Shown here piece after piece: positions 5,285 through 7,662 of a DNA stretch of 20,196 bases (positions are counted from its first letter, which is position 1; each line of letters opens with the position of its first letter). Source of the stretch: a virus (lineage: Duplodnaviria > Heunggongvirae > Uroviricota > Caudoviricetes); the IMG/VR virus record IMGVR_UViG_2563366948_000002, positions 1-20,196 of that record, one strand, 5' to 3'. The translations under genes were made by a program, and so were the position numbers. A model generated the notes under the pieces. The model saw nothing but the letters and a program-made list of their open reading frames with translations, was not told the origin of the DNA and ran no database searches.

Positions 5285-5443
5285 CGCGCGCTCGCTTAGT
5301 TTTGTAACACTCTGAGTAAGGTCGCTTTTTAGAAGCAAATGGCTTGCAAATTTTTTCAACATTGAGGTAATTTGTTAGGTATCGAAGGATAAATTAAGAC
5401 AAGAGCAAATTCTTATTGCTTTTTGGATGACTAGGTGCAAGTT

Positions 5444-6550
5444 ATGACAGGTAGTGTCCCAGTAGTGCTTTCTGAGTCTGAGTTAAAGTCGATCTTGACC
5501 TTAACTGAACGTTTCACATGGAACGTTGCAAGGCCAATTATTGCGTCTTTAGGGCTGCCAACAGGTAGGGGGCGTGAAGCAACAAACGAAAAAATACTAG
5601 AAAGCCTCATTGATCTTAAAAGTAAAGATAGGCAAAAGTTTGATGGCATTATGGCAAACGTAAATGACCTAATTTTTGGTCAGGTCGTTTATGGTGAAAA
5701 AGCAATATTTAGTTTGACTGTAGATAATAGTGTAATTAAAACACTAAATGACAGATTTAGTTTTCAATGGAATTTGATGAATCAACCATCATTATTGGTT
5801 GATTCGATCCTTGATGATGTCCAATTGCAAAATGCTGTAAAAAATCAACCTGAACTTGTTAATTATTCTATTCAAAACACCCAGTCAATACTTGTTTTTT
5901 CATCTGTCAGAGAATTAGTTGTAAGAGAAAAAATTCCCCCGTCAGCACTTGCGCAATACAAGCAGTTTGATGAAATTATTGCAAAGCGAAAAGAAAAGCG
6001 ACAATGTTTTGATGTCTGTATATTAGACTCTGTTACTAATAAAATTCATGTTTTGGTAGATACTAATGGTAATATTATTGGTGATAATGTTACTTTTGCA
6101 AAGAGTAACATTATTCGTGAATTGTATAATCATGTCGGTTATGAATTTAAATCATCGGAAAAAGATTTTTATCCGTTAATTGAGCCAATTTTCAAACAAA
6201 ATTCATTGCCTTATTCAAAATTAAGCTATAAAGTCTTTGATTTGTCATTTTTGACGAATGAGGGGACTACGCATAAAGAAAAGAAAAATGTGGCCACTAA
6301 AGACTTACGTGATGATTTGTTTAATAAGGAAGGCATCAAAGCAGTAGGCAGTATTGGTTTGTATCGTATTGGAATTAGAGTTGATAGAAATAATCCAAAA
6401 CTGCAATTAGCGGATAACGTAGAGCTTATCATTCCGGGAACACTCCGCAGGCATCTAGGAGGGAGTAGTTGCTCTCCTGTTAACTATGCTATATTAAGTA
6501 AATGTATATCCAAAGATGATTTCGAAACCCTCACAAAGCTGATATTATAA
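5444..6550 (+). CDS. Hypothetical protein A (about 368 aa), first gene of an AT-rich three-gene cargo operon
   Basis: Long ORF with AGGTG SD 6 nt before ATG 5444 (ORF track starts at GTG 5435). No Walker A, RT or other motif recognised; ends 12 nt before the start of gene B. Confidence 0.7.
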   Translation: MTGSVPVVLSESELKSILTLTERFTWNVARPIIASLGLPTGRGREATNEKILESLIDLKSKDRQKFDGIMANVNDLIFGQVVYGEKAIFSLTVDNSVIKTLNDRFSFQWNLMNQPSLLVDSILDDVQLQNAVKNQPELVNYSIQNTQSILVFSSVRELVVREKIPPSALAQYKQFDEIIAKRKEKRQCFDVCILDSVTNKIHVLVDTNGNIIGDNVTFAKSNIIRELYNHVGYEFKSSEKDFYPLIEPIFKQNSLPYSKLSYKVFDLSFLTNEGTTHKEKKNVATKDLRDDLFNKEGIKAVGSIGLYRIGIRVDRNNPKLQLADNVELIIPGTLRRHLGGSSCSPVNYAILSKCISKDDFETLTKLIL

Positions 6551-6562
6551 TTGGAGTCAGCA

Positions 6563-6997
6563 ATGAAGGATGGTGATATGCCCAAGATCATCAAAGAAAT
6601 GTGTGCAGAACGCCCTGAAATTGGGGCGTTAGCTTGCTATTTGTACGATGAAATCGAGGCAAGGGCTAAAAAATCATCAAATATAGCTTTAAGTTATAAG
6701 GATTTATTTAATATAGCTGGTGGTTATAATAAGGTTTTACAGCCAGAAACGTATGAGCAGGTTATCTATCCGGCCATACAAATTCTTTGTAGCCCAAAGG
6801 TTGATTTTTTAAAACTCAATTATTGGTTCATTGATGATTTTCATGACCCTGTAGAACTTGAAATAGAGGAAGTTATTGAGGCGGAAATCAGTCAATCTTT
6901 AGCAAACCCATTTACAGGGGAGCTTATGTATGACTATAAGTCATTCGTATTTCCTTTTTTTACATTAGATGAATCTAAATCAAAGGATATTATCTGA
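6563..6997 (+). CDS. Hypothetical protein B (about 144 aa), strongly acidic
   Basis: GGAG SD 6 nt before ATG 6563 (ORF track starts at TTG 6551). About 27 Asp/Glu versus about 14 Lys/Arg. Stop TGA (6995-6997) overlaps the start of gene C. Confidence 0.65.
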   Translation: MKDGDMPKIIKEMCAERPEIGALACYLYDEIEARAKKSSNIALSYKDLFNIAGGYNKVLQPETYEQVIYPAIQILCSPKVDFLKLNYWFIDDFHDPVELEIEEVIEAEISQSLANPFTGELMYDYKSFVFPFFTLDESKSKDII

Positions 6998-7662
6998 TGT
7001 TAAAAATGTCTGCAGCAATGAGTTTGGCTGATATTGATAATGATATTTTTCTTCAGCGTATTAATGCTTCTATTACTCGTGTTAGATTTGCACTTCAATC
7101 GTACGATAATTTCAAACAATTTGTCAGGATTGAACTTGATTCTGCTGTAAAGGAAATAGAAGAGAATTCAAATAAGTTAAACTTCGATTTAACAGAAGAT
7201 CAGCTTACTTTAATTTTATTGGCCAATATCAAAAATAAAGATATGGGCATTGAAGCATTTCATGAAAATAATCAGCGCGGACATTGTGATATTACAATAA
7301 AACTAAAGGATTATATTTGGCATGGCGAAGCCAAAAAACATACATCTTCATATAGTTATTTATTTAAAGGGTATGCTCAACTCACTGAACGATATAGTAC
7401 AGGGACCGTAGACAGCGCAAGTGGTGGATTGATTATCTATACTCGTAATAGAAAATGTAATGAAATGATGAGCAACTGGAAGGCGCATTTAGATAAATTC
7501 GCACCAAGAATTCATGCCTGTAAATCTATAACGATTACTCCTTGTCAAAAAAATCCATTGGTTTTTTATAGCCAGCATGTTCACACAGTTACTCAACTGA
7601 ATTATGAAGTTATTCATTACCCTGTAAATCTATATCATGAGCCTGTAGATCCGGATCTTTAA
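6997..7662 (+). CDS. Hypothetical protein C (221 aa) with a possible PD-(D/E)xK nuclease-like motif
   Basis: ATG overlaps the stop of gene B (TGATG), AGGA SD 9 nt upstream. Segment GHCDITIKLKDYIWHGEAKK gives D98-x12-E111-A-K113. Followed by a terminator. Confidence 0.7.
   Translation: MLKMSAAMSLADIDNDIFLQRINASITRVRFALQSYDNFKQFVRIELDSAVKEIEENSNKLNFDLTEDQLTLILLANIKNKDMGIEAFHENNQRGHCDITIKLKDYIWHGEAKKHTSSYSYLFKGYAQLTERYSTGTVDSASGGLIIYTRNRKCNEMMSNWKAHLDKFAPRIHACKSITITPCQKNPLVFYSQHVHTVTQLNYEVIHYPVNLYHEPVDPDL

Follow-up and report, generated by a model that had tools for sequence, protein, structure and literature searches.

The DNA analysed here (the window) is a stretch of 20,196 nucleotides at positions 1 to 20,196 of the IMG/VR virus record IMGVR_UViG_2563366948_000002 (Caudoviricetes), and the subject of this work is a three-gene operon on its + strand. 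The genes, which we call A, B and C, fill the 2.4 kb gap from a cos motif to the stop codon of the portal gene Q (Table 1). The stop of A and the start of B are separated by 12 nt, the stop of B and the start of C overlap in TGATG, and each gene is preceded by a Shine-Dalgarno-like sequence (AGGTG, GGAG and AAGGA for A, B and C, respectively); translation of A might also begin from a GTG at 5435. The three proteins match the PHROGs families 12777, 11490 and 9664 (E 6e-129, 6e-55 and 4e-86, respectively), all of which are families of unknown function. A, B and C are real genes and not chance open reading frames (ORFs), since their families are conserved, comprise tens to hundreds of clusters of homologues and show an unchanged gene order in different phyla.

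The cos-like 19-mer GGCGTGGCGGGGATACGAG, which delimits the cargo slot on the left, occurs once in the window and in none of 100 shuffles. The leader in front of A travels with the operon, because the alignment of an allele with 85% identity starts at window position 5330. No sigma-70-like promoter was found in this leader (5330-5443) by a consensus scan. At the other end, the GC-rich hairpin at 7702-7727 is probably a terminator shared by C and Q, and phage P2 has tQ annotated at the equivalent place. The GC content of the operon is 0.341, in comparison with 0.551 in Q and P, and that of the DarTG genes is 0.322. The distance between cos and Q is about 2.45 kb in the window and 167 bp in P2, where cosL occupies positions 1-19 and the Q stop lies at 187; the slot in the window therefore contains about 2.3 kb of additional DNA.

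Table 1 Features of the window and B-domain proteins of other loci (L numbers; coordinates within the locus)
Feature	Position	Strand	Basis or remark
cos-like cohesive-end motif GGCGTGGCGGGGATACGAG	5266..5284	+	left edge of the cargo slot
AT-rich leader 5' of gene A	5330..5443	+	alignment of the 85%-identity allele starts at query base 1 (window 5330)
gene A, 368 amino acids (aa), isoelectric point (pI) 8.5	5444..6550	+	ORF from ATG
gene B, 144 aa, pI 4.4	6563..6997	+	ORF; RefSeq length 139 or 144 aa
gene C, 221 aa	6997..7662	+	ORF
GC-rich hairpin between convergent C and Q	7702..7727		terminator scan reports the - strand
portal gene Q	7732..8769	-	RefSeq annotation of the identical locus; right edge of the cargo slot
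DarT	3156-3737		PADLOC E 2e-36, Pfam
DarG	3742-4713		PADLOC E 3e-80, Pfam
IS5/IS1182 transposase fragment	4870-4977, between DarG and cos		pseudogene according to RefSeq in S40, where the locus is identical; coordinates transferred by alignment
TIR_2 + transmembrane + B protein, 458 aa	L011:2765-4764 (with the overlapping C homologue), JGI metagenome contig		B match E 3e-38; hhalign 97%
FeeM-like acyltransferase with fused B	L038		B match E 1e-28
full-length EF-Tu copy with fused B	L059:3242-4960, Litoreibacter roseus		B at residues 449-567, E 5e-23; C-family nuclease next
type ISP restriction-modification enzymes with C-terminal B (three)	L048:136-4935, L051:211-4929, L055:142-4935		E about 2e-22; C-family nuclease next
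type I HsdR with C-terminal B	L046:1450-4953		E 4e-16; C-family nuclease next
divergent ribosomal protein S3 paralogue, 353 aa (KH_2 + Ribosomal_S3_C)	L073:1486-2547, Nioella sp.		C-terminal extension, weak B match E 1e-4

The operon is acquired, swappable cargo of P2-like phages, situated in their variable slot next to cos. The gpA-gpQ region next to cos was described as a defence hotspot of P2 (Rousset 2022, PMC9122126), and the operon has this position, varies among relatives and is atypical in composition. In related prophages integrated at the ybjL site, the slot between cos and Q holds a DprA gene (LP50-1, L084:12227-13201) or an unannotated, unrelated gene of 223 aa (H5, L085:10829-11500); across cos from the latter, H5 carries a gene of a KAP-type P-loop nucleoside triphosphatase (NTPase). 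Among 5,426 complete Escherichia coli genomes, the operon was found in 21, nine copies with at least 99% identity and 12 with the 85% allele. All these copies lie on the chromosome, and their three products carry the annotation 'hypothetical protein'; a megablast search of the INPHARED phages gave no match to the operon. In strain S40, the operon lies between DarTG and Q of a 186/P2-like prophage that is intact, and in KFu019 the operon is kept and the DarTG position is held by an unrelated 299-aa gene. The KFu019 gene (L002:7458-8357) lies on the opposite strand and has no Pfam match. The operon is also present with 99.9% identity in E. coli MS 115-1 (H8, NZ_CP146665.1:3090759-3093159), the source strain of the NucC structure 6p7p in the PDB. 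MS 115-1 is a model strain of the cyclic oligonucleotide-based anti-phage signalling system (CBASS).

Homologues with 41-89% identity occur in Klebsiella, Enterobacter, Serratia, Erwinia, Pantoea, Cronobacter, Rosenbergiella and Providencia. The triad is the sole cargo of some true P2-like prophages and lies in a prophage in Rosenbergiella; it is preceded by PRTase-CE+NADAR in a Serratia prophage remnant and by a type II restriction-modification (RM) system in a Pantoea prophage. In Providencia manganoxydans (L003:8001-10224), it is carried by a P4-like satellite, at the hotspot between the alpha primase and psu/delta, in the gene order integrase, epsilon-like Derepression gene, Toprim primase, triad, Psu and Ogr/Delta, which deserves attention since P2 and P4 were reported almost never to swap defence genes (2026 preprint, 10.64898/2026.02.27.708500). 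In all 26 IMG/VR loci, a convergent Q gene follows 35-80 bp after the triad. The identity of these Q genes to that of the window (61-99.7%) does not follow the identity of the operons, from which it follows that the operon alleles have been shuffled among phage backbones. Where detectable, the cos motif is 135-220 bp upstream of A in related loci.

The prophage of the window is a double-deletion remnant in which defence-type cargo has outlived the phage. In comparison with S40, 5.1 kb from the middle of CII to the middle of DinI is missing (window 2603-2604), so that fil, the dam methylase gene and the replication gene A were lost, and a second break, at 11117, fuses gene O with the end of the tail sheath gene. 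The remnant lacks the genes for capsid, lysis, baseplate and fibres. What remains, next to ybjL, is the integrase gene, CI, DarTG, cos, the triad, Q, P and T-U-D-ogr, with the cargo genes intact. The toxin-antitoxin (TA) defence pair DarT-DarG lies across cos from the operon. The initial annotation, which was made from the letters of the window alone, had described three tightly coupled ORFs of the lengths given here, AT-rich relative to the flanking phage genes and placed between a cos-like site and Q where P2 is short, with DarTG across cos and the whole in a region of variable cargo. Each of these points was confirmed: the DarTG pair by PADLOC and Pfam, and the variability by the different cargo in the slots of the ybjL-site prophages.

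The triad is widespread, though patchily, across bacteria and extends beyond P2. When GTDB species genomes were scanned with a C alignment, 46 loci were obtained, 45 of which hold a C homologue, and these loci were then examined by local profile searches. They span Alpha-, Beta- and Gammaproteobacteria, Cyanobacteria and one metagenome-assembled genome of Acidimicrobiales (Actinobacteria). A colinear triad with an A of 350-400 aa, a B of 132-164 aa and a C of 201-243 aa was present in 36 of the 45 loci. Outside Enterobacterales, the neighbours include integrases, DRT2/DRT4 reverse transcriptases, type I, IIG and MmeI RM systems, PIN_12 and type IV secretion system genes. In Pseudanabaena sp. 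(L079:3551-6561), A and B are intact and C is split into three fragments over 3 kb, probably by insertions.

According to its predicted structure, C is a protein of the PD-(D/E)xK restriction-endonuclease fold with intact catalytic residues and hence a predicted nuclease. The model (predicted local distance difference test, pLDDT, 89.9) has the alpha/beta core of these enzymes and the catalytic D...(D/E)-x-K arrangement. It matches BamHI-type enzymes (OkrAI 9.5, BamHI 9.2, BstYI 8.6 and BglII 8.3) as well as nucleases of the same fold, among them CdiA-CT, McrC, HamA, Can2 and NucC. Among 36 close homologues, the motifs E67-D68, D98, E111-x-K113 and Q128...R132-Y133 do not vary; in 42 distant ones, the equivalents D91, E105 and K107 are invariant, as are E62, Q122, R126 and Y127. 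A profile search of 1.84 billion representative proteins yielded 568 clusters (50% identity) of the C family. Most members are free-standing proteins of about 210 aa, and some form the C-terminus of STAND NTPases composed of NACHT or NB-ARC and HEAT or TPR domains (P0114, P0146, P0163, P0174, P0179, P0180 and P0227); one is fused to a S24 (LexA/UmuD-type) peptidase (P0220). From these domain architectures, C appears to be in use as the effector module of immune-type NTPases. The NACHT-HEAT-C fusions have no B domain, and in them the C domain aligns from about residue 30 of the profile onwards. In P0227, a distant member, the C domain is weakly matched by the PADLOC candidate PDC-S54 (E 8e-8).

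Protein B represents a family of domains of about 130 aa with no recognisable relatives in the Pfam and PDB searches. It is acidic (pI 4.4, and 4.05 in the C-terminal half), and we have the impression of a winged-helix-like pattern in its sequence. Both B and C are predicted to be soluble, with grand average of hydropathy values of -0.15 and -0.42, respectively, and no hydrophobic stretches. A B homologue lies directly upstream of the C homologue in 43 of the 45 loci. B is a free protein in the triads; in the other loci, a profile of 48 B sequences located the B domain, mostly in its full length of about 130 aa, at the C-terminal end of the protein which precedes C. The fused partners were identified by Pfam in loci fetched with 5 kb flanks (the type ISP genes run past the edges), and they comprise a TIR protein, a FeeM-like acyltransferase, EF-Tu, type ISP and HsdR enzymes and a ribosomal protein S3 paralogue (Table 1). 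The TIR-B gene and the start of the gene that follows it overlap; the latter encodes a C homologue of 207 aa with 38% identity to C of the window, and the pair is a two-gene variant without A. The EF-Tu copy has the GTP_EFTU, D2 and D3 domains and an almost canonical N-terminus. A GHKL ATPase gene is situated upstream of it, and an ORF downstream was judged from its sequence to be recombinase-like. The S3 paralogue is directly followed by a C-family nuclease gene, and the gene upstream of it has a S24 peptidase domain. B is best read as a device that would couple a free C to a partner protein, A being the commonest partner, because B is absent where C is fused to NACHT-HEAT proteins and otherwise precedes C directly, either as a free protein or as the end of a partner.

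For protein A, two methods point to the RdgC fold, which is of the DNA-clamp type, RdgC being a ring protein that binds DNA and is associated with recombination. The AlphaFold model (pLDDT 86.5, predicted template modelling score 0.85) consists of an N-terminal four-helix region (approximately residues 11-83) and an RdgC-like core, with the base, centre and tip domains of that fold. In a Foldseek search, two RdgC structures were the top matches (E 3e-6, probability 1.00), followed by CENP-N and CENP-L. The alignment to RdgC covers 195 residues with 10% identity, and the TM-scores of 0.33-0.40, together with a large global root-mean-square deviation, indicate that the arrangement of the domains in A differs from that in RdgC. 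No sequence membership in RdgC (PF04381) was detected for A at E <= 1 or for 37 diverse A homologues at E <= 0.05 with the Pfam model, and the A profile gave E 50 against an approximate E. coli RdgC sequence. Only a handful of residues are invariant in A. A reading of A as a cyclase of the CYTH/TTM type was rejected as the main one, since the CYTH matches are shorter (80-100 residues) and the ExExK signature is missing. RdgC was described to bind DNA non-specifically, and RexA, the exclusion protein of the lambda prophage, belongs to the RdgC/IML3/CHL4 fold group and also binds DNA non-specifically (PMC11077077).

None of the three proteins has a match in Pfam (2025 copy), NCBIfam (2026 release) or the PDB sequences, as searched with single sequences and profiles, and none matches a PADLOC v2.0.0 family (including Lamassu, Hachiman, PD-T4/T7/lambda and the Gao, Millman and PDC candidates) at E <= 0.1. 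The proteins are listed as 'hypothetical' in Table S5 of Rousset 2022 (PMC9122126), where the triad is not among the cloned systems. The 85% allele of A (WP_021580613.1) appears in Table S10 of the DefensePredictor study (PMC13092281) as a 'predicted novel defense gene' with a log-odds of 8.4, one of 1,041 E. coli clusters of this kind; neither HHblits nor Foldseek connects A with known defence proteins in that table. No accession of the operon and no A, B or C peptide was found among the entries listed in the other supplementary tables of that study. Identity with the Rousset 3HP system, P4 gop-beta-cII or P2 tin was rejected by profile searches, which likewise did not point to RexA-like proteins, and the Lusitanian-named P4 systems of the 2026 preprint (Crouga, Bandua, Aernus, Toga and Reve) as well as Hailong were set apart by their descriptions. 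The nuclease that the initial annotation had suspected in C was borne out by fold and motif, and some of its other suggestions need qualification. It had recognised none of the proteins, which agrees with the sequence databases and PADLOC, but A can be recognised by structure as RdgC-like. The layout of a large protein, a small acidic protein and a nuclease is conserved, although B is better called a nuclease adaptor domain than a generic modulator. The operon is indeed cos-proximal hotspot cargo of P2-like phages without being a peculiarity of P2, as the 36 triads in 45 loci across phyla demonstrate. The proposed novelty holds with respect to PADLOC v2, whereas the cargo had already been listed as hypothetical by Rousset and A had been listed by DefensePredictor.

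We propose that the operon encodes a three-component anti-phage or anti-mobile-element system in which A would sense DNA, B would tether and restrain C, and C would be the nuclease effector; we assign this a probability of roughly 0.55. That the operon is an anti-phage or anti-mobile-element system of some kind, whatever the roles of its components, is in our opinion rather probable. In the proposed mechanism, A, as a sensor or a targeting component that binds DNA, would recognise some property of phage DNA as it invades or replicates, or else a phage protein which acts on DNA. B would physically couple C to A and would probably keep C inactive until A is triggered. C would then cut DNA, so that either the phage genome is destroyed or the infected cell is killed (abortive infection). 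We infer the service in defence, the binding of DNA by A, the contacts among A, B and C and the trigger from several lines of evidence. The operon lies in a hotspot beside DarTG, other cargo occupies the same slot in relatives, RM and PRTase-CE+NADAR genes are among its neighbours, and the base rates for such cargo are favourable: more than one third of the systems cloned by Rousset 2022 (PMC9122126) and six of eight unknown P4 loci (2026 preprint, 10.64898/2026.02.27.708500) were active. The catalytic residues of C are invariant, and the C domain is terminal in STAND NTPases. B is the constant partner of C, with an exchangeable third component. A has a fold in common with RexA, the spread across phyla is patchy with integrase, DRT and RM genes nearby, and DefensePredictor independently scores A at 8.4.

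Several points weigh against this proposal. The literature searched, outside which Brenes & Laub 2025 (Cell Host Microbe 33:1004) lies, contains no phenotype of the operon or its homologues. The likeness of A to RdgC is moderate, and the binding of DNA by A is suggested by this likeness. The adaptor role of B is deduced from the adjacency of genes and domains. Outside Enterobacterales, most neighbours of the triad are housekeeping genes, so that the signal of a defence island is modest there. Finally, the combination of a nuclease and a small acidic protein would suit a TA pair just as well. In such an addiction module, C would be a DNase toxin, B its antitoxin and A a regulator, and the operon would stabilise the prophage or island without any phage trigger. 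The position of the small, acidic B directly upstream of C and translationally coupled to it would be expected of an antitoxin, the B-C pair is inseparable across loci, and the operon was retained in a heavily deleted prophage remnant. Unlike labile antitoxins, however, B is often fused to large enzymes or other proteins (type ISP, HsdR, EF-Tu and TIR). Moreover, C also occurs as a terminal domain in STAND NTPases, a class of immune receptors, and 36 of the 45 loci have conserved a third gene, with a product of 350-400 aa. We therefore regard an addiction module as unlikely. Many TA systems are abortive-infection defences, and to this extent the two explanations overlap.

The operon might also be a methylase-free restriction system of the type IV or McrBC-like kind, in which A would recognise modified or marked foreign DNA and C would cut it without death of the cell. 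This is rather unlikely, since A has no recognisable SRA, YTH or DUF3578-like domain and no NTPase motor, the binding of DNA by RdgC is non-specific (PMC11077077), and EF-Tu, S3 and TIR as partners do not fit the recognition of a mark on DNA. Nucleotide signalling, with A as a CYTH/TTM-like cyclase (or TIR in the variant) making a small molecule which B senses to switch on C, seems quite improbable. The CYTH matches extend over 80-100 residues as against 195 for RdgC, A lacks the ExExK signature and has few invariant residues, and the type ISP, HsdR, EF-Tu and S3 partners generate no signals; the covalent fusion of B to its partners implies tethering between proteins rather than a diffusible ligand. 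A function in the service of the phage itself, be it as an accessory of recombination or replication, as a means of attacking rival phages or satellites in the lytic cycle or as a counter-defence, would agree with the finding of every Enterobacterales copy in a P2-like phage or P4-like satellite by the packaging genes, and RdgC modulates RecA-dependent recombination (PMC11077077). On the other hand, most triads outside Enterobacterales have a chromosomal setting free of phage structural genes. The operon is also oriented convergently with the late operon, resembles other lysogeny-expressed cargo in being AT-rich, and is intact in a remnant which can neither replicate nor build virions. We thus consider such a function improbable.

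Compared with known systems, the proposed three-component system is closest to Lamassu and Hachiman by its logic, to RdgC and lambda RexA by the fold of its large subunit, and to Rst_3HP by its location and number of genes. As judged by the searches, it is a member of none of Lamassu, Hachiman, RdgC, RexAB and Rst_3HP, because their defining components were tested for and not found. Lamassu consists of LmuB, a SMC-like sensor, the small subunit LmuC and LmuA, a nuclease of the PD-(D/E)xK type restrained until DNA is sensed. By analogy, the operon also has three genes for a proposed DNA sensor, a small bridging subunit and a nuclease effector, but it encodes no SMC/Rad50 ATPase and has no Lamassu match in PADLOC, and A has the ATP-independent RdgC fold. 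In Hachiman, the HamA nuclease is held back by the HamB helicase, whereas the operon has no helicase and no PADLOC match to HamA or HamB and comprises three components instead of two. STAND NTPases (Avs/bNACHT) have the C domain in common with the operon, as the terminal domain of NACHT/NB-ARC + HEAT/TPR proteins; the operon of the window, in contrast, has no NTPase, and its nuclease is a separate protein with a proposed recruitment through B.

RdgC differs from A in that sequence similarity is not detectable, and A is 65 aa longer, with an additional N-terminal four-helix region; RdgC is also a stand-alone housekeeping gene, whereas A sits in a nuclease operon. Lambda RexAB is prophage cargo as well, and A shares the RdgC/IML3/CHL4 fold group with RexA (PMC11077077), but a multi-pass membrane partner like RexB was not found, B and C being soluble and C having a nuclease fold. 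Rst_3HP ('hp + hp + hp', pFR109) is a validated system from the P2 hotspot that protects against P1 (Rousset 2022, PMC9122126). It has the hotspot and three unannotated genes in common with the operon, but its proteins of about 340/350/230 aa are unrelated to those of 368/144/221 aa analysed here, for which the profiles gave E >= 31 (hmmsearch).

If active, the operon would represent a novel and compact defence system, 2.2 kb in length, composed of three families for which there is no Pfam, NCBIfam or PADLOC model. It is invisible to PADLOC v2.0.0, and DefenseFinder and PADLOC could be extended by models of the three proteins. The operon is a well-defined candidate, and its main additional interest lies in the modular B-C cassette with its unusual partners. 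We tentatively suggest, as a possibility rather than an expectation, that B and C form an undescribed plug-in cassette of adaptor and executioner nuclease mounted on diverse sensors, that the EF-Tu and S3 copies are integrated decoys for phage factors attacking translation, and that the operon of the window is the commonest member of this group. Integrated decoys are known from the NLR-ID receptors of plants, and the EF-Tu-B protein of Litoreibacter roseus may be one of this kind; the EF-Tu and S3 fusions make the idea of bacterial integrated decoys directly testable. If the proposed roles are true, the RdgC fold would have a second role in immunity besides RexA, and the B-C cassette would represent a general way to arm unrelated sensors with a DNase.

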